Assembly (NCBI RefSeq): GCF_016432865.1
Contig: NC_067402.1
Span: 152,582,001 to 152,645,841, forward strand
Reading direction: 5' to 3'
Length of the DNA stretch: 63,841 nt
DNA from: Antechinus flavipes
Lineage: Eukaryota
Translations under genes and position numbers: made by a program
Notes under the pieces: model-generated
What the model was told of the DNA's origin: nothing
Seen by the model: the letters and a program-made list of their open reading frames with translations, nothing else
Database searches by the model: none
Part shown: one piece after another, positions 21,168 through 62,040 of the stretch
How positions within the stretch are numbered: the first letter of the stretch is position 1
Layout: the number at the start of each line of letters is the position of its first letter

Positions 21168-23889
21168 TACATTGAGCACAACAGTCATACTAAAAAAATG
21201 TTAGGTCCCTTGAACATTAAAATTTACTATAAGCATCCAGCTCCATTTTAATCTGATTCTCTCCTTCAGCTAAAGTAATGCAATCCATTCTTAGAATTGA
21301 ATGTTAACTAGGTCAAAATAATGAAAAACCTTTATAAGGCATGACTTCACAATTGTTCTATTCCATTTATAGTTTGTTGGGTTTTTTTTGGGGGGATTGG
21401 GCAGATAGGGATGGAACATGGAGCAAGGTTGTTCATTCCCAAATTGTATATTTTTCTCTAAAGTATAGAGACTGTTCCTCCAAGCTACATACAACTGGTC
21501 TCATTATAGTACACTCAAATCTCATATTTGTATTCATTAGACTCAAATATAAAGCATTTAACAAGAGAAAATATAAGATGTTTATACATTACTTATATTT
21601 GTTTAATTTTATATAACTTTGGAGCTTCTTTTCTGGTTTTTGCACCAGTCTTGAGATTTCTTGGTCTTAAGCTCAGGTTCTTAACTGCATTTCATGAACC
21701 AGGTGGGGTAACATAACTGAATGTGGGGGTTGAAATATTATGAAATATATGAAAAAAATATTATGAAATATTAGTAAATGTTTGATTTGTATATCTGTCT
21801 TATTTCCTTTATACCCTGAGTCATGTAAAAATGTCTTGACCTGAAAGGGATCATGAGTAGTAAAAGTTTAAGAAGACTTTTTCTGACAGTAGAGAACTTC
21901 TGGGGCCAAAGGAGATTGTGACATCTAGACTTAGAGAGTATCTTAGGACAATAAGAATTAAGTGATTTATTTAGAGCCACAAATCCAATATATATCAGAG
22001 ACATGATGTTTCTAAAGATTGCTTTATCTTCTGTTGTCTCTCTGACTTTTCAAAGTACTTTCATAACTCTGATTTCCTTTATTCTAAAATCAGTTTTGTG
22101 GACCTCTGTTTTATAATAAAAGCAAAAATGACAAAAGGGAAAGAGAGCCGGCCTCCAGGTATAAAAAACCTACATTTAAATTTTGTCTTAGACTTAACTA
22201 TCTTTATCACCTTGGACCAATCACCCAAACTCTCAATATTCCAGGTAAATTCTTTATAAATTATGGTGTAGTTCCCTGCCTAAACTGATAGAAAAGATTT
22301 CCTTAGCAAAAATTACAAATAAAGATAAAATTACAAATTCAACTTTCTTCCCCTCCAAAAGGGAAACTGGCACATTTTTTGACTTTCGCAAGACTAGGCA
22401 AATCATTAGCAAGAGAATCCCATTTCTCTTGAACTACAATCTATTTTTCTCTCCATGGCCATCTCAATAGTATTCATTTCATCACCAGCTAAAGAAAGAA
22501 GACAGATGAGCAAGAATAGAATATCCTGTTGTGCTTTGGCTTGTAATACAGAGAAATATTACCAACTCTGGTTTCATTTGAAAATGAATGGACTTAACCA
22601 CATTCGTAAATTTAAATATTGTTATTTAAATTTTCTGTCTCTAAACGTCCATGTACACATTAGAATGATTTGGCCATTCATTTTTCAGAAATGTCCAATT
22701 TAAACATTTTGTAAAGTCCTAGTCTTTTTGTTCTCAAGACATGTTAAAATCTGTCTAAGTTTATACATGAACTTGGCAGGCTCCTGAGTCCTTTGTGGAC
22801 AATTTGTTAAGAGCAAAAACTTCTATATAATTTGAAGAGAATCTGGCTCTTTGGACATGTACTAGAACAGCAGGGCATGTTTCAGGTCAAAACTAATATA
22901 GTTTGGCAGAATTGCTTAAAAAGTTTGTGCAGCATCTGTTTGGGCTGTGCTTTGATCTGCATAGTTTTTCACTTTTATATTCACTTTCAGGAAATCTAAC
23001 CAATAAATTTAAAAAATAGTTATCTCCTATCACATCATGCAAAAGGGAATGGAACTATGGTAATTCTCAGGTTGGACACTTCATTGAGTTTAGATGCTTG
23101 AAAAAAAAATTTTTTTTCACTGACTTCCTATATTCCCCTATTTAGGATAGGAATGAAAACATGGTACTTCAACAAGTTTTCTAATGGAGTTAAATCAGCA
23201 TTGGGCAATGTTCTGACTTAAAAATTTCAGAGAAACAGGAAATTCTTCTAACAGCTGATCTATATCAAAAATGGTTAAAACTTCACGTTTGTTTGAAAGC
23301 TTGGATTCTCTTACTGGAGTAATGTAGCAAGGCAAAAGTCAATCCTGACATTAACCCCAATTTGGTTGCTTGTTTTTTTTTTTTTTAAATTAAAACTATA
23401 TTTAAATTATCATCAGAGAACAAAAAGAATTGTACCATATTTTGTGTGATATTTGACATCATAGGGTATATTTTAAAACCAATGTCCTAGTATGATTAAT
23501 TGCTTATTCTTTTTATTTCTTTAGCTACATGCTCATTCCTATCATCAGGCTAATTTTAATTTAAGAAGATTAAGTTGAATAATAGTTTGCATACTTGATG
23601 AATGACTGTGAGAGATTTAGCAATGTAACTGCCTTGTTCTTTGCCTCTGACACAGTCTGTATCTTCTTGGACTGCTTTCTTTAACAGGGAACTTAGGTCA
23701 GGCTTCAACTTGGAAAGGCATGATCCTAGATAGAGGCTTATGGGTGGAGACTAATACTATTACTGGCCCCTGTATTTTGGGATATGAACTAACTCAATAT
23801 GTAGAGAAACAGACAAATGGATTTTCATGAGAAGACATCTCCCAGGAAAAGACAAGATAAAAAACTATCTGACAGAGCAACAAAAATGC

Positions 23890-24321
23890 TCTTTTCTTTT
23901 CCTTTTCTCTTTCTTTTTCCCATCTTCTCTCCTTATCTCCTCTCACCTCTTCTTTATCTTTTATCTCTTCTTTCTCTGTTTCTTCTCTTCTGTTAATCTT
24001 TTTATGTCTCTATTTTTGTATGTCTATGTCTCTCTGCCTCTGTTTCTGTCTCTATATATCTCTATCTCTCTATATATCTCTTTTCTCTGTCCCATCTCTG
24101 TTTCTGTCCCTGTTCATTATTTCTCTCTTGTTTTCTCTCTCCCTTTCCCTTTTCTTCCTTCCCTCCTTTTTCTCTTTCTCTCTCTGCCTCCACATCTCTT
24201 TCTGTCTCTGTCTCTGTCTTTGTCTCTCTCTATCTCTGTCTATGTGTGTCTCTTACCTTTCTCTCTTTAAATGTCTCTGCCTTTCTATGTCTCTGCCTCT
24301 GTGGGTGTCTCTGTCTCTGTG

Positions 24322-24357
<36 letters not shown>

Positions 24358-24358
24358 T
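23890..24358. repeat. Long CT-rich low-complexity tract ending in (CT)n(CA)n
   Basis: About 470 bp pyrimidine-rich on +; it produces the spurious Leu/Ser/Phe ORFs 23827..24270 and 24020..24367. Confidence 0.95.
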
Positions 24359-27300
24359 CTGATGTGATGAATTAATCATCAAATAACACTAGGTCAGCAG
24401 CCTCAGAGCTAAGCTCCTGGAATCTTCTGAAAAATCTTTCAGTGAACTTGGAAGAAAAGGCTGTTGTCAAAGAGTAGTATTTCTATGCTCCTAACTAGTT
24501 TTTATTGGAAAAGCCCTGTAGCCATTTTTGTTGGGTATAAGGAAGTAATTCTCTTAATTAGCTGCAGCTGTGAAGATAGTAATCGCTTTTACCTCACTGC
24601 CAACAACATACTGTATGTAATTTCAAGATGTAAAGAGTACTCCTTGGCTCTTCCTGAATTGAAATGGCAGTCAACTTCTGATTGCTGTCAGCCTGAATTA
24701 TACATCTTGTCCATAGAATCAACCATTTTTCATTCATTTTGGTTTGAAATCAGCAATATCATGATCAGATTCATTAATAATGTAAATAAGCTATAGATTT
24801 GACAAAAGTTTTATTATTCATTGTATATAGCACCTATAAATTCCTTTAGTTTTTAGGTATCTAATTCAAAAATTAACTGGAAAACCATATATTTCTTCAC
24901 TGTAAATAAATTCAAAAGCACTCTACTGATATAAGCTACTGCTATTACAACAATAGCTATGAATTACATGGTTTTCATTGACTGAAGGAATGTTTCATTT
25001 AGTAAAATTATAAAGAGAAATAACATCTAGCCTAGATTGCCCTTCGATAGTGGATTATCCAGTACATTTAGGGAGAAAGGCTTTCTAGTCTTCTCTTAAA
25101 TGGTTCAACCAAGAAAAAATATAAAACTTTCCTAATTACCCCATCCCAGTCTCTTGTCACCTCTCCAATCAAATACTTTTTTTTTTCTTTTAGTTTATCT
25201 GAGATCTCAAGATGTCTTTTATTTTGGTGGAGAGGAGACTGTAGCAAAGCAGATTAAGTGGTAGACTTAGAATCAGAGATACCTCCATTCCAATTCTGCT
25301 TGCACACTTACTAATCACATGGCAACAAGATAGACAACAAATCTCTCTCTGCCTCAGTTTCTTCATCTGTCAAATGAGAATAAGAAAACCATATAGCTCA
25401 CAGGAGTACCACAACTATCAAATAGGATATTTTTTCAATGGCTTGCAAACATTATTTTTATTATCTTGTTAAAAATCTATTTCAGGCTGGTTAATTATAT
25501 ATATATATATATATATATCTTTAATTAGCTTTACGTATCATATTACAGATTTGGAAACTGAGGCATGGAGGATTCAAGTGAGTTACCTAAAAATTCATAG
25601 TCAATTTTGTGATATAATGAGGAATAGAATTAAAATCCTCCCAGGTCAGTGCTATCTCTGCCAGTGCTACAAACACACTGATTCTTAATTAAATGAAAGT
25701 CACAATCTTGACTGAGAGCCTACTAGGTGTAAAAAAGCTCTTTATAATCAGCTAGAGAGATGGTATCACAGTGATTTACCCAGAACAATTTGGAATACCA
25801 CCCTGTTGTCTTTTTACCCAGACTAGAATGGAATGGTTGAGGGTTTTTTTTGAAGGTAAAAGTGAGAACCTATATTTTTCTCTGGGATTGTCAAAGAATA
25901 TTTCAAAAAGAATTCTTTAATTACAAATCCCTTTTTCTTTTCCTTTTAGGCTTGAAGAATGAGTATATATAAGCTCTATCTTTCTTAGAAATTAGATCCC
26001 TTTCCATCTGTTTTTCATCTGAAATCATTCTTTTATCCCAAACACAGGACCACTATTAGAGTTGTTTTGCTTCATTAATTAATTTTCATTTTTGCATGCC
26101 TAATTCAGAATAATCTGCAATTACCCTTAATGTAAATGACTCCCTCCTCTCTCTTCTAAAAGATGTGAAAAACTTGAAATGACTTTTGAGAAGAAATTAA
26201 TATATCCTGGAAATCATTCAAGTATCTTGAAAATAAGGTCAATTAGAACTGTATCCTATGTGTCCAAATTAGTTTGAATCTAATGAATTTCATATATTCT
26301 AGTTCAGGGTAGAAATAAGGCATGATACTTGGGCTGTTTACACTTGCAAAATGAAGGGGGAAATGAGGTGATTATCAAAACATTGTGAAAAAATCATTAA
26401 AATGAGCATTCTTCCCTTAATTATTTGAATATTTCAGGCCAAAATATTTTACATATTGAATCACCAGCTAATTTTTGGAAAGTTTAAAAAAATCCTAGAA
26501 TTTTGCAAATACAACTTGGCTTGTGTTAATATATTTAATATAAAAATCAGGACACCAAAACATGGGGATTATTTTGTCTTTATAATTACACTGATGAAAC
26601 TGCTGATCTGGATGTGATTAGTCAGAAAATTAAACTGAAAACTTCACAAAGTTTTGTCTTTGACCCAGTGTACCACTGTTCTATTTGATTTACAATTTTG
26701 ACAGTGCTTGTTCTGCTTTCTCCTCTTATTTTGTCACTTAAATTCCATACTTGAAAATTTTCATATCTTTATAAAATACTTAGGAGGGAATTTGTTGAGA
26801 AAAATCAGAGCATCTTTTAAATGATCCAAAAATGTTCAAAAAGGCAAAATTCTGTCCCTCATTCTTGACACTTGAAATGCTCTCCCTTCCTAATTCTCTT
26901 GAAAAGTTCCCCATTCTTCAAAGCTTAGCTTAAATCAATCTCCCTCAATGGAGTCTTCCCTGAATTCTTTTGATAACAATCTCTCTCTCTCTTTCATCTG
27001 ATCTCAGAGCACTTTGCAGGAGTCCCTTGAGTATATTTTTTCTCATATGTTTATTAATATTATAAATAAAGTATCTGAGTATAATTACTTCACTTATGGC
27101 ATATTCCTTGAGAAGGACCAAATCTTAACTTTTGCTCAACACATCTACTCCTGAAGCTGTAATAAAAGGTGACAATAAATATTTTGAGTGAATGGTATTT
27201 TTCACTGATCAAGGCACACTTGAGAAAATGTTATATTTGTTATTTTCCATTTATGAAAAGGAAATATAATTACTTTGTTCCTGTTTTTAAAAGTCATTTG

Positions 27301-57481: not shown

Positions 57482-59129
57482 CTGAAAATAAGAGTACATT
57501 TATTAAGCATTAATAGTTAGATGCCTTAGAAACAGCATATCTTGAAGTTTTTTTTTTTCTTCACTGGGGATGGATGGCTTATAAGTATTCCATTCTTGTA
57601 GGTCAACTTTATTTTTTAATAAAATGAAGTTCTGACTGTTATTATTAGCATAATTTAAAAGAATAAAACATTTCTAAGTTTGAATACTTAATTTTCTGTC
57701 TACAGAAATAAAAAAAAATTAACTGTTCTCCTAAGTAGTTTTAGTGAATATGACATTAAATATTAGATAATTTTACATCTTATGTGGAAAAAAGTTATTG
57801 GCTAATAATATAACAAGCAAATTATCAAGAGAAAAAATAATTTTCTTGTCACTATGTTTAGGTTGACTAAAAGTGAAGATTAAATTTTGAACAATGATTC
57901 AGAAGCTAAAAGGATAAGGAGAAAGGATTAAGGAATTAAGTTCAGCCAAGAATCAGAAACATAAAGATTTAAATCTAAGATTCACACATTGAAACCAAGA
58001 GAAAGCAAAGTCAAGAGCCCAGGAAATTAGATTTAATATGATTAAGAGAAAATCATTTTTCATTATAGGCCAGAACAAGATAGGATAAAAGTGGCACATA
58101 ATTGATTTAAATATTACTGCCCTTGGCACTAGTCTTCCTAACTAGTCTTGTCTCATCTATATGTACAGGATCATTTGAAGGCTTTTTTAAAGAATCACAT
58201 TAATATATATGCATTTTTCATGAAAATATTATCTATATTTTAAGTGCTTTATATTTTAACCACTTTAAAATAACTTTTTTTTTTCATAAGCAATTTTCCT
58301 TGTATTTTCTTAATGGTTGTTTAATACCCAAACACTAAATGGATTCAATTAATCAGATGTTTTATATAATCACATAGTGTTCAAGCTAAAAAGGATCTCA
58401 TTCTGACACACTAGTCCAAGAAGGAGAATAAGCTTATTTGTTTAACTGTCACTTTCAGACTTTCATTCTGCTACTATGACTTAATATCCACTCCTTTTTT
58501 GAATTTGGCTGGAAAAGTATATTACTCCTTTCAAATACTCTTCTAAGTTATCTATCTATTCCTTGAATATTCTCCATGTTTGTCATGATCTTTAATTCTT
58601 GCTTTTAATCTTCCTCTTCAATCCATTTATACTAGTGAATTTCAAAGCACATACTGATATTTTGTAAAGACTTTCAACTTCCCAATATATCAACCTCCTT
58701 AACTCTTGTGACCTATAAACATTTACTCCTTAACTACACCCAGGGCCAGTCATAACCCTGTATTAGTTTCTGACAGCTGTTCCTATTAAATTATTTTTTT
58801 AAAAATACGATGATATTCTTCTAAGAGAACTTTGTGCCAGTCTACCTTTCCCTGTCTTAGTCGTTTGAAACCTATTACTTATTCCAAGGATAACCTCCAA
58901 CCTCTCTACTCGGTTCTATTCTAAGCCCTTGTCACTGTTCATTTCACATTCTTCCCTTACAAGCCTTAACTCTATTCTAACTTTTTCAGCTTTAAATTGT
59001 TCTCTACTGTTGAATCTTGTCTGCTTGTAATTATTGTTGCTTATGACTTGCCAAATCCCAACCTTGCATTATTGCCACCATCTCTAATTCTATTCTTGAA
59101 CGGCTAAACAGTACTGGAGGAAGTCTTTC

Positions 59130-59717
59130 TGTAATGGGCTGAGGCTTGAGTTGATGCACTGAGGTCCCAAGCACATGAGGCTAAATAGTAATTGGACCAT
59201 ACTCTATTAATATATAAGCTTGGAGAAAGAATGGCCCCCGCCCACTCTTTGTGCAAGTCCTGATGTGTTGTATAGGAAATGACGATTCTGGTGGGTAGAG
59301 GCAGGGGAGTGGAAAAGGAAGGGGAAGAGAGACTGCTTGCTTTTGCCATTGCGATGACCTTTCTGTTTGTTTCTCTTCTTCTTTTTGCTTTTTGCTGAGG
59401 CAGTTGGGTTTAAGTGACTTGCCATGGCCACACAACCAGGAATTGTTAAGTGTCTGAGGCTGGATTTGAACTCAGGTCCTCCTGACTTCAGGGCTGGTGC
59501 TCTACCCACTGAACCATCTCCTCCCCTTCCTTTTCCACTCCCCTGCCTCCACCCACCAAAATCGTCATTTCCTATACAACACATCAGGACTTGCACAAAG
59601 AGTGGGCGGGGGCCATTCTTTCTCCAAGCTTATATATTAATAGAGTATGGTCCAATTACTATTTAGCCTCATGTGCTTGGGACCTCAGTGCATCAACTCA
59701 AGCCTCAGCCCATTACA
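59130..59717 (-). repeat. 3' LTR made of two 201-bp inverted arms (59130-59330, 59517-59717) and a 186-bp core
   Basis: Read directly: the arms are reverse complements with 3 mismatches, and both ends read tgtaatgggctgagg. Confidence 0.97.
59360..59516 (-). mobile_element. WSINE1-type SINE forming most of the 3' LTR core
   Basis: A box tggttcagtgg (59506-59516), B box gagttcaaatcc (59462-59473), A-rich tail. Confidence 0.9.
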
Positions 59718-59738
59718 TCTCCCGCTTTCTTTTGTTTT
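59718..59738 (-). promoter_or_regulatory. Polypurine tract (3' PPT)
   Basis: The minus strand aaaacaaaagaaagcgggaga lies immediately before TGTAATGGG, which fixes the provirus orientation. Confidence 0.85.
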
Positions 59739-59746
59739 AGAACACA

Positions 59747-59907
59747 GGTGATCATGCCATCCCTGACTTCTCAGGGAGGTGAGAGCCCCCAAGGGGAGGT
59801 GATCACACCTTCCCTGACTTCTCAGGAAAGGAGGTGAAAGCACTAAAAAGGAGATAATCACGCCCTCCCTGACATCTCAGGAAGGGAGATGAAAAGCACC
59901 AAAGGGA
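59747..59907. repeat. Three tandem copies of a 51-55-bp unit in the proviral 3'UTR
   Basis: The unit gg(t)gatcac.cc.tccctgacttctcagg...gg.ggtga.agc.c.aa.ggga repeats three times. Confidence 0.9.
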
Positions 59908-60684
59908 AGTGGGGGTTGCTCGCAGGTTTCTGGGCTCAAGGGTCTTATTATGCACAAACCCATCAGCATGGGAAGTATTACACAAGCACATAGCAACAAT
60001 GCAGAGGCTATTAGTGATGACTCTCCCCACAGTCAGTGCAGGCTTGATGTGGTGTAACAAATATGAATTACACACCCAAATAACAGTATAACAAACAATA
60101 TAAATTGACATTGTGTTGTAAAAGATTGCCAGAAGTCCTAGAAGGAGAGTATGTAAACAGCAGTCACACATACACCTTCTTCAGCAGCCAAGAGATAGTC
60201 CAAAACCAATCTATTGTCCATCGCTTCACATATCAGGGAATCCAATGATCCCCCCAAGTTTTTGAAGTCCAGCAAAAGTCTTTTTATGTCTTAGGGAATC
60301 CAATGATTCCAGCAGATTTTGAAGTCCTGTAACAGTCTTATCATTTCTCAGAAAATCCAATGATTCCTGAGGGCTTTCAAGTCTTATGTCTCAAAGAATC
60401 CAATGATTCCTGAGGGATTTAAAGTCCTACAACAATCTAATGTCTCAGAGAATCCAATGATTTCCGAGGGTTTGGAGGTCCAATGATTTTCTATGTCCAT
60501 GAGTCAAACACCATAACTGCCACACGCTTTCAATGGTGAGCACAATCAGCAACAGAACCATCCGATGTTTCTTGGGTCTTCTCCTTCGTTTCAAGGGTCT
60601 GCTCCGTCTCTCTGCGATGGACAAGGCGAATACAGCTCGTTGGCACCCATCTGATTCCTTCTCCACCTGTAGAGATACAAGCAA
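59803..60684 (-). pseudogene. env: env remnant (leader, heptad repeats, ISD, hydrophobic segment; SU absent)
   Basis: Acceptor tctctacag| at 60667/60666 inside the integrase CTD; RRSRPLKRRRRPKKHR-MVLLLIVL; MDNRLVLDYLLAAEEGVC (60168-60221); then CCLH and a hydrophobic run after a frameshift. Confidence 0.75.
60237..60490. repeat. Six degenerate tandem units (26-58 bp) with core tccaatgat
   Basis: Core at 60241, 60299, 60356, 60399, 60453 and 60479. Confidence 0.9.
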
Positions 60685-61032
60685 ACCCTCTCCCCCAAGC
60701 AGTTAGCGTATCTGGTCCCTTCCATTCACCACTTTCTAGGTCTCTCCACATCACCTGGCGATTATCTAAAGATAGCGGAGCTGCTCGCACTGGACACTGC
60801 CCTTCCAGTGGGTTATAAAACCTGTCTGCTGGAGCCAGTGCATCTTTGTCAAAAATCAAGAAGTTAATAGTATAAAGAGCTAGATTTAGAAGCTCTCTAG
60901 GGTTACCTGTGGCTCCCCCTTTCTTTTGTTTTTGGAGGAGCATCTTAATGTCTCTGTTTCTCCTCTCTACTATTGCCTATCCTTGAGGATTAAAGGGTAT
61001 GCCAGTGGTGTGTAAAATCTTATACTGTGCAC
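60530..61032 (-). pseudogene. pol: pol remnant: C-terminal half of a betaretrovirus-like integrase
   Basis: [38 protein letters not shown]...VMWRDLESGEWKGPDTLTAWGRGFACIS..WVP matches class II ERV integrase (HTTGIPYNPQGQAIVER; WKGPD..WGRG); one stop at 60977-60979. Confidence 0.93.
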
Positions 61033-61438
61033 AAAAGGAAGGGGAGGAGATGGCTCAGTGGGTAGTGCACCAGCCCTGAAGTCAGGAGGACCTGAGTTCA
61101 AATCCAGCCTCAGACATTTAACAATTCCTGGTTGTGTGACCATGGGCAAGTTACTTAAACCCAACTGCCTCAGCAAAAAGCAAAAAGAAGAAGAGAAACA
61201 AACAGAAAAGTCATCGCAATGGCAAAAGCAAGCAGTCTCTCCTCCCCTTCCTTTTCCACTCCCCTGCTTCCACCCACCAGAATCGTCATTTCCTATACAA
61301 CACATCAGGACTTGAACAAAGAGTGGGCGGAGGCCATTCTTTCTCCAAGCTTATATACTAATAGAGTATGGTCCAATTACTATTTAGCCTCATGTGCTTG
61401 GGACCTCAGTGCATCAACTCAAGCCTCAGCCCATTACA
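61033..61438 (-). repeat. 5' LTR copy: full arm (61238-61438), 187-bp core (61051-61237), 18-bp stub of the second arm (61033-61050)
   Basis: About 96-97% identical to the reverse complement of 59130-59534; the SINE reads on + here. Confidence 0.95.
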
Positions 61439-62040
61439 TCATACAACCCAGTTGATAGGGGTCATATGTAAATTTATATTACCCAATCTTAACTGGGCCT
61501 TCACCAGGAAATTTTTTCACCATTTTCAATTTGATTATCTATTGTATTCTCCAATGAAGTTATTCCAAATATTCTCTTCTCAAGCTTTCTACAACATCCC
61601 CTTCCCTCTTCCATAAGAGGACTTTCCCCCATAATTCACTGGAAAAACCTGCCATTCATCTTTATCTCTCTCTCCTTCCCTGAATTATATCTTAAAACAC
61701 CTTGACATATTCCTCCCCCCCCCCCCCCCGCCTTCCCATCCCTTTCTCCTTTATTCTAGCTTCAAAAGAAATAATAGTTCATTATCTTGCCAAGGCCAAT
61801 GATCATATCCCTTCCAATGACCTCTAGAAGACTGCCTTCACAATCATGCTTGAGTTACTGCCATCCCCTGGAATAAGAGGGCTATAATAAAGGACAGGGT
61901 ATAGGTATCAGATCAAATCTACAAAGTCATAAAAGAGAATTAAAGATAGGTAATTTAGAATATTTAATTTAATGAGAGATACAGATAATAAAGAAAGAAT
62001 ATATGCAAAAGCCATGAATCAAAGGAAGAAAGTTTATTTC

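Follow-up and report, generated by a model that had tools for sequence, protein, structure and literature searches.

A 588-nt hairpin in the genome of Antechinus flavipes, at positions 59130-59717 of the 63,841-nt stretch analyzed here (NC_067402.1, 152,582,001 to 152,645,841; hereafter the window), belongs to a family of non-autonomous elements that probably parasitize an env-less class II endogenous retrovirus (ERV) by acting as its primer. The two arms (59130-59330 and 59517-59717) are 201 nt long, 99% complementary and spaced by 186 nt, and they are identical except for three mismatches at arm positions 159, 168, and 197. Both correspond to LTR 1-201 of the parent ERV, counted from its U3 attachment end: the first, on the plus strand, is the right-hand arm on the minus-strand reading, and the second, on the minus strand, is immediately preceded by a polypurine tract (PPT). 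The arm alignment bears out the arm-core-reverse arm layout, with a U3 terminus at both ends, that the first-pass annotation had described. As it had also reported, AATAAA is absent from both strands and each arm carries ATTGG (position 62), TATATAA (82), and a GC box (108; first occurrences). The hairpin has the TG...CA termini of a canonical retroviral LTR and lacks the poly(A) signal and the U5 end, both of which are present in the parent LTR; we agree with the earlier opinion that this form is unlike described LTRs. The facing Pol II promoters, the substrate for siRNA, ADAR or other double-stranded RNA pathways, and the cruciform to which that annotation drew attention are possible side effects of the hairpin. 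What it overlooked is the core, a SINE that has the motifs of a Pol III unit and whose predicted ends match two sharp genome-wide breakpoints.

The hairpin is neither an assembly artefact nor a single-locus event, both of which are ruled out by its genome-wide copies, the junction counts, and the target duplications of these copies. The whole unit matched at 40 of 40 scored loci, i.e., itself and 39 others at 93-97%, among 3898 candidates. The junction between arm and SINE has 72 matches as an exact 31-mer and 599 as a 25-mer with at most 2 mismatches, and the reversed-pattern controls gave 0. All 72 exact matches were mapped and represent 70 loci, 47 of which (counted by hand) are stand-alone units of ~590 bp bounded by two U3 ends and devoid of PBS and PPT, in most cases with an exact 6-bp target duplication. 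The genome-wide junction search that had been proposed thus retrieved many independent loci, and an exact 6-bp target duplication flanks 53 of the 72 hairpins of a set that pools junction loci with copies from the whole-unit search. The structure is older than the insertion in the window, one of the two possibilities that the first-pass annotation had named.

The hairpin is composed of LTR 1-233, an antisense SINE from which the first 12 nt are missing, and a reversed LTR 201-1. The joint at the SINE head is common to the family, whereas different LTR subtypes are combined on the tail side, which in three loci (L063, L088, and L113) consists of a whole inverted LTR with the start of a PBS. One hairpin (L196, C1:18046679-18047346) has another SINE-head joint, near LTR 228, and the family is therefore larger than the 599 junction matches. 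In L046 (4900-4990), an arm ending at 192 adjoins a SINE head that is more divergent, and this may be a separate capture of a SINE at the same site. Four one-armed copies (L060, L105, L107, and L059) end in the SINE tail or the LTR tail, three of them at a cryptic CA, and have duplications of 5-6 bp. Larger inverted duplications of ERV internal sequence are found in L053 (3925-7720, with 1.3-kb arms at 99.5%), L128, L108, and L150; those in L053, L108, and L150 integrated as single units with target duplications. Finally, two LTR-PBS joints lie face to face, 638 bp apart, at C1:252037117 and 252037755, and they are probably a U3-U3 unit of two full LTRs.

The parent element, hereafter the helper, was characterized from proviruses found via an internal fragment (20 of 40 fetched loci). 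It is a class II ERV with an LTR of ~415 bp (range about 385-440 nt) that has AATAAA and a U5 end, a Lys-type PBS, an integrase of the IN_DBD_C type, and a 6-bp duplication, and it is env-less judging from the length of its 3' region and the list of open reading frames. Genome-wide, we counted 10,085 U3 ends, 7,766 U5 ends, 952 exact PPT-LTR joints, and 497 LTR-PBS joints; the U3 and U5 counts were made with different mismatch limits and are not a basis for the number of hairpins. The description resembles that of MEBrv 3, a betaretrovirus-like ERV that lacks env and is found in Dasyuridae (Harding et al. 2024, PMC11334065): both are class II-like, env-less, about 7 kb long, and very abundant, a match made by description only. 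The words 'inverted', 'hairpin', 'palindrom', and 'primer' do not occur in the main text of that article.

In the window, the hairpin stands at the 3' end of a composite that is read on the minus strand. Its PPT (59718-59738) is that of the parent ERV and is preceded by a 3' internal fragment of the same element (59739-61032), which includes the C-terminal part of the integrase (ORF 60533-60976, IN_DBD_C, PF00552, E 1.3e-14) and lacks PBS, gag, pro, and RT. Upstream of it, a 406-nt 5' piece (61033-61438) is a partial hairpin copy with a reversed core: arm 1-201 (61238-61438), LTR 202-233, the antisense SINE (61051-61207), and the reverse arm 201-184, after which the sequence jumps into the integrase over a 5-nt microhomology, with no PBS. 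The first-pass annotation had placed the arm/SINE junction in both LTR copies; the junction is indeed present in the upstream piece, but this piece is partial and its core has the opposite orientation. The hexanucleotides at 61439-61444 (left) and 59124-59129 (right) may be a target-site duplication and are identical at 4 of 6 positions. We read the 5' piece as plus-strand DNA that copied the primer RNA, and under the primer model the locus would be a product of a plus strand that jumped into internal sequence, here with a full hairpin at the 3' end. Short tandem-like repeats occur in the env-less 3' region of the helper (59746-59881 and 60238-60495, with periods of about 52 nt and 43-57 nt). 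Elsewhere in the window (23788-24367), two overlapping stop-free frames lie on a CT-rich simple repeat and offer no gene candidate.

The core is a tRNA-derived CORE-type SINE with an A-rich tail (59361-59516, minus strand), which matches the host SINEs of the window at 79-84%. It carries an A box (59506-59516) and a B box (59462-59473) on the minus strand, and the first TTTT downstream of the SINE (59313-59316, minus strand) is the complement of LTR 184-187 and is predicted to be both the Pol III terminator and the 3' end of the primer. A and B boxes followed by a run of four T define Pol III units, and from its motifs the SINE core would be such a unit. The predicted RNA of ~218 nt (59313-59530, minus strand) runs from LTR 188 to the TTTT, with ends deduced from the breakpoints; a start near LTR 190 is expected because the head of the host SINE extends 12 nt 5' of the A box. 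It is predicted to form a 14-bp terminal stem (in both the MFE and the centroid structures) with a 3' U overhang, and it is no more stable than shuffled sequences (z -1.31, not significant). Its 3' ~50 nt are complementary to LTR 184-233, and within them the segment antisense to LTR 202-233 (59331-59362, plus strand) is a putative single-stranded toehold, which would pair with the helper RNA.

These motifs recur across the family. The B box is kept in 69 of 72 hairpins, the A box being present by pattern selection, and among the 65 hairpins with a TTTT, the first one corresponds to the complement of LTR 184-187 in 60; both tallies, of B boxes and of TTTT, are biased upward, since 30 loci were picked by their likeness to the window copy. 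The lack of an earlier TTTT shows no selection, because it is largely inherited: 33 of 39 ordinary LTRs have none before the terminator site either. The Rfam tRNA match to the core is weak (E 0.84), no Rfam family matched at the gathering level, and the microRNA matches are due to chance and arise from the inverted repeat. We found no RNA run that contained half of the 21 words searched for. Three runs, apparently from another species, have reads on the generic SINE only, which are uninformative on the predicted ends, and contig set X15 has just one piece of 79 nt across the tail/LTR joint, which shows 7 differences and is insufficient as evidence. Around the A box (59500-59516), one haplotype of the captured SINE head is nearer to tRNA-Lys than the host SINE reads are, a hint that the promoter may have been repaired by recombination with the tRNA primer.

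From the structure of the units and the two breakpoints described below, we infer the following route. Pol III would transcribe the SINE core from around LTR 188-190 to the TTTT at LTR 187-184. The 3' ~50 nt of this RNA would pair with LTR 184-233 of the helper genomic RNA, a pairing that would also get it packaged, and would prime minus-strand DNA there, bypassing tRNA-Lys, the PBS, and the first-strand transfer. The PPT-primed plus strand would copy the helper U3 (1-187) and continue through the RNA primer up to the 5' end of the latter. The new 3' end of the plus strand (reverse LTR 201-188) could fold back on its own arm or on a sister arm, the folded strand would run off at the PPT-defined U3 end, and a second plus strand would fill in the complement. 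The resulting duplex of ~590 bp, with its two U3 attachment sites, would be inserted by the integrase with a 6-bp duplication, and every new copy would again carry the Pol III unit. If the plus strand jumped into internal sequence instead, the product would be a provirus that lacks a PBS, carries the SINE in its 5' piece, and has its 3' LTR cut at 186-187.

The first breakpoint lies around LTR 188, on the side of the RNA 5' end. After the antisense SINE, the match of partial reverse arms stops mostly at 184-192 (30 of 44 rows, which include some small indels inside complete arms), and in the 5' piece of the window it stops at 184. In one locus (L202), a near-whole tRNA-Lys with its CCA is fused to the SINE head, and the LTR-derived end begins at 188. 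At the same locus (L202:1457-1540, C1 near 82156890), the tRNA-Lys(CTT) is fused at the D-arm and is followed by what appears to be the reversed U5 of another LTR element; this chimera resembles the tRNA-primed strong-stop intermediate that was reportedly once proposed as the origin of tRNA-Lys-related SINEs. A SINE-free U3-U3 unit (L197, C1:30921553-30922168) lies between 6-bp duplications and joins a full LTR to the reverse arm 148-1 through 39 nt of complement to tRNA-Lys(CTT), from the 3' part of the tRNA. This unit shows plus-strand read-through into the primer, a switch onto the arm, and integration with two U3 ends; judging from it, fold-back seems native to the helper RT. The tRNA was identified by alignment to a tRNA-Lys(CTT) gene in L203, and ARAGORN found no tRNA in L197, L201, and L202. 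Adjacent matches at C1:482981943 and C1:548320480 are compatible with an LTR-PBS joint followed by read-through into the body of tRNA-Lys. As for the integration of such ends, U3 and U5 attachment sites are described as short imperfect inverted repeats that suffice for it (PMC12789967).

The second breakpoint lies around LTR 186, in the 3' LTRs of the helper. Among 40 PPT-preceded LTRs, taken from the start of the list of 952 joints and our sole source for the distribution of ends, we count 31 full LTRs, 1 hairpin, and 8 truncated LTRs, 7 of which end at 180-193 (binomial p 4e-10 against a uniform distribution over 415 nt). A pattern for arms ending at 186/187, which fixes the end at 186 or later and cannot give a distribution of ends, retrieved 41 loci against 13 at a control position (not normalised). 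By hand tally, these comprise 22 PPT-preceded stubs, 5 solo U3 stubs, 5 untruncated LTRs, 6 template switches at this point, and 3 mixed or unclear cases. The 6-bp duplication is exact at 185-187 in 18 of the 22 stubs, although this end is not CA, and also in the five solo U3 stubs (LTR 1-186/187; L142, L143, L145, L151, and L153), which are another kind of truncated solo LTR. An RNA primer that annealed at 187 and beyond would leave such ends when it is removed. Their position at 186-187 nevertheless speaks against a primer with the full U4, as it requires either 0-1 U at the primer end or a primer that was not completely removed. The same stretch is also purine-rich and could be a Pol II start or a pause site, a further point against the primer model.

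The other end of these proviruses is also informative. The PBS-gag leader is kept in none of the 22 stubs, and 17 have a SINE in their 5' piece (13 antisense and 4 sense), to be compared with ~599 junctions per 10,085 U3 ends in the genome. The 5 stubs lacking the SINE count against the primer model; in 3 of them, the LTR is ordinary and is accompanied by all or part of a PBS copy. In two SINE-less stubs (L144 and L152), the PBS copies differ from the genomic PBS, which suggests plus strands that came from a tRNA-primed partner RNA and landed on a SINE-primed minus strand. Another truncated locus (L158, at 180) has an ordinary LTR-PBS 6.1 kb upstream, which is likewise unfavorable to the model. 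One locus with an antisense 5' piece (L091) was predicted to end in a stub and has one at 186 with a matching 6-bp duplication; in a second test of this prediction, the locus (L067) ended too early to show its 3' end. The 4 stubs with a sense SINE also count against the primer model, as they need an extra strand-switch step.

These sense-type pieces are easier to derive if the template were instead Pol II RNA reading through a small number of master loci (PPT-arm-core-reverse arm), with no role for Pol III, an alternative that we regard as unlikely without being negligible. Position ~188 would then be the U3/R boundary, and the hairpin RNA or cDNA would prime itself or replace the minus strong-stop DNA. 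A TATA-like TATAGGAAA lies about 40 nt before 188, and PPT-bearing loci of both core orientations exist (the window, L051, L054, and L195). However, such masters leave unexplained why the right end coincides with the first TTTT that follows the SINE, why core deletions spare the A and B boxes, and why antisense 5' pieces predominate (13 of 17).

The sequences of the arms bear on how each copy arises. Over LTR 1-183, arm divergence is 1.8% within an element and 2.9% between elements (medians of 1.1% and 2.5%, respectively; p 2.6e-9, n=69), so that this segment seems to be copied twice from one template at each event. Minor variants at positions 84, 85, and 111 occur in both arms of 7, 17, and 23 elements, where 0.8, 4.7, and 10.6 are expected. 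Over LTR 188-201, there is no such likeness (4.5% both within and between elements), the copy on the SINE side being uniform (1.4%) and the other diverse (7.3%); this segment would thus be inherited separately on each side, like the two ends of the RNA. Palindromic gene conversion was considered as the cause of arm likeness and rejected: it is not needed, because the direct U3 copies of stubs differ by the same median of 1.1% (n=18, against n=69 hairpins; p 0.44). Arm haplotypes are partly linked to the core class (haplotype TGA is found in 11 of 19 H2-deletion cores), which fits inheritance by lineage as well as a shared helper. The arms are identical in 14 of 69 elements, and nine ordinary LTR pairs differ by 3.8%. 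With a substitution rate near 2e-9 per site per year, the burst of hairpins falls roughly within the last 3 My.

The stand-alone hairpins might also be nothing more than solo LTRs, formed by recombination between the direct arms of composites and spawning no copies. Composites with direct arms exist (the window, L055, L063, and L082), the ordinary LTRs of the family are mostly solitary, and recombination over ~190 bp does take place, as is evident from the 5 solo U3 stubs that have duplications. Yet, by hand count, stand-alone hairpins outnumber their possible precursors by 47 to at most 8, whereas the ratio of solo to two-piece stubs, of the same age (both medians 1.1%) and length of homology, is 7:22 (p 4e-8). 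Most hairpins have therefore probably integrated directly. As recombination would in addition explain neither the origin of the composites nor the two breakpoints, we consider this account improbable.

The first-pass annotation had taken the hairpin for an LTR that replaces the U3-R-U5 layout in a lineage of proviruses. Such a lineage would replicate through the usual tRNA/PBS pathway, and each of its ends would carry a palindromic LTR. Full hairpins do occur as a 5' piece (L132, L141, and L150) or as a 3' piece (the window). However, no fetched or mapped locus, whether identified by junction, provirus, or stub, has two direct hairpins around a PBS and an internal region, the two copies of the window have opposite core orientations, and hairpin 5' pieces join internal sequence at scattered points with a core of variable orientation. 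Most copies are stand-alone units, and the LTR of the parent ERV has remained ordinary; with the lack of paired direct hairpins, this indicates that the hairpin is a derivative spreading with the ERV and not its LTR. A hairpin-LTR lineage is thus close to refuted and highly implausible. Least credible of all is a MITE moved by a DNA transposase that recognizes long terminal inverted repeats: these repeats and the fixed-length target duplication would fit, but the ends are retroviral TG...CA attachment sites, shared with an ERV that encodes an integrase, the 6-bp duplication is also found at U5-ended loci (L115 and L108), and the cores combine LTR subtypes, PBS starts, and tRNA copies into mosaics typical of RT switching.

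Within the primer model, we lean slightly towards a more specific scenario, in which a SINE was freed from LINEs by acquiring an antisense tail to a retroviral LTR and became a self-propagating 'primer parasite', with an RNA made only of a promoter and a pairing tail that displaces the tRNA primer, acquires both arms anew from the helper in each cycle, and is integrated as a U3-U3 hairpin. About one helper insertion in six would then be aborted as a by-product (7 of the 40 sampled 3' LTRs end at the primer site), and the element may restrain the dominant ERV of the genome in a defective-interfering manner.

If this is true, transposition would take place outside the usual classes, with a mobile RNA that is a primer and not a template, and that can do without its own PBS, PPT, packaging signal, and LTR. 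It would be a case, in a mammalian germline, of a retroviral RT that accepts a non-tRNA primer at scale and reads through primers, and of an integrase that inserts DNA with two U3 ends hundreds of times. It would also be a way for a SINE to exchange the machinery of LINEs for that of retroviruses, and the element would be a natural case of antisense interference with an ERV that the literature links to genome instability in dasyurids. Mechanism aside, several hundred young and near-perfect 200-bp palindromes are candidate sources of dsRNA and candidate fragile sites, which repeat annotation would file as solo LTRs or MITEs. We found no description of the hairpin element or of its spread in the literature; Repbase, Dfam, or supplements might hold one.

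The closest known systems are the TRIMp3 elements Cassandra, Helenus, and Ajax, which have two LTRs with a PBS and a PPT between them, are said to follow the standard tRNA/PPT route, and are proposed to originate from the insertion of a SINE into an LTR (Kojima 2024, PMC10886601). Like them, the hairpin is short and non-autonomous, uses the machinery of LTR elements, and has a Pol III promoter derived from a SINE or small RNA, here predicted from the sequence. Unlike them, it is a stand-alone unit with inverted arms that are common with the helper, has no PBS and no PPT, and its RNA is apparently a primer, not a template. The core itself probably derives from marsupial CORE-SINEs of the WSINE1 type, a subfamily name that we assign tentatively, which have a tRNA-derived head with A and B boxes. 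SINEs are treated as non-LTR retrotransposons and WSINE1 has been inactive for ~30 My in dasyurids (Gallus et al. 2015, PMC4408412), whereas one SINE copy would here have respread in the last few My via retroviral RT and integrase. Accordingly, the hairpin units end in U3 attachment sites with 6-bp duplications, not in an A-rich tail with duplications of variable length. An ERV1 solo LTR described in the same article is of similar length, has a 4-bp duplication, and is a different element (PMC4408412).

Compared with solo LTRs, the hairpin is likewise a single LTR-derived unit between 6-bp duplications, but it lacks R-U5 and the poly(A) signal, has two U3 ends, and is too numerous for the precursors seen. 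Tf1 also primes without a tRNA; it has direct LTRs and primes itself in cis from its own 5' end, whereas the hairpin RNA would prime in trans on the helper RNA. DIRS elements share the inverted terminal repeats and are autonomous, with a tyrosine recombinase, whereas the hairpin would be integrated by a DDE integrase. MITEs are short and non-coding, with terminal inverted repeats and a fixed target duplication; the hairpin differs from them in its presumed RNA intermediate and its retroviral attachment ends, and no transposase is implicated. The hairpin is therefore outside both the canonical LTR elements and the LINE-mobilized SINEs, and is MITE-like in outline only.
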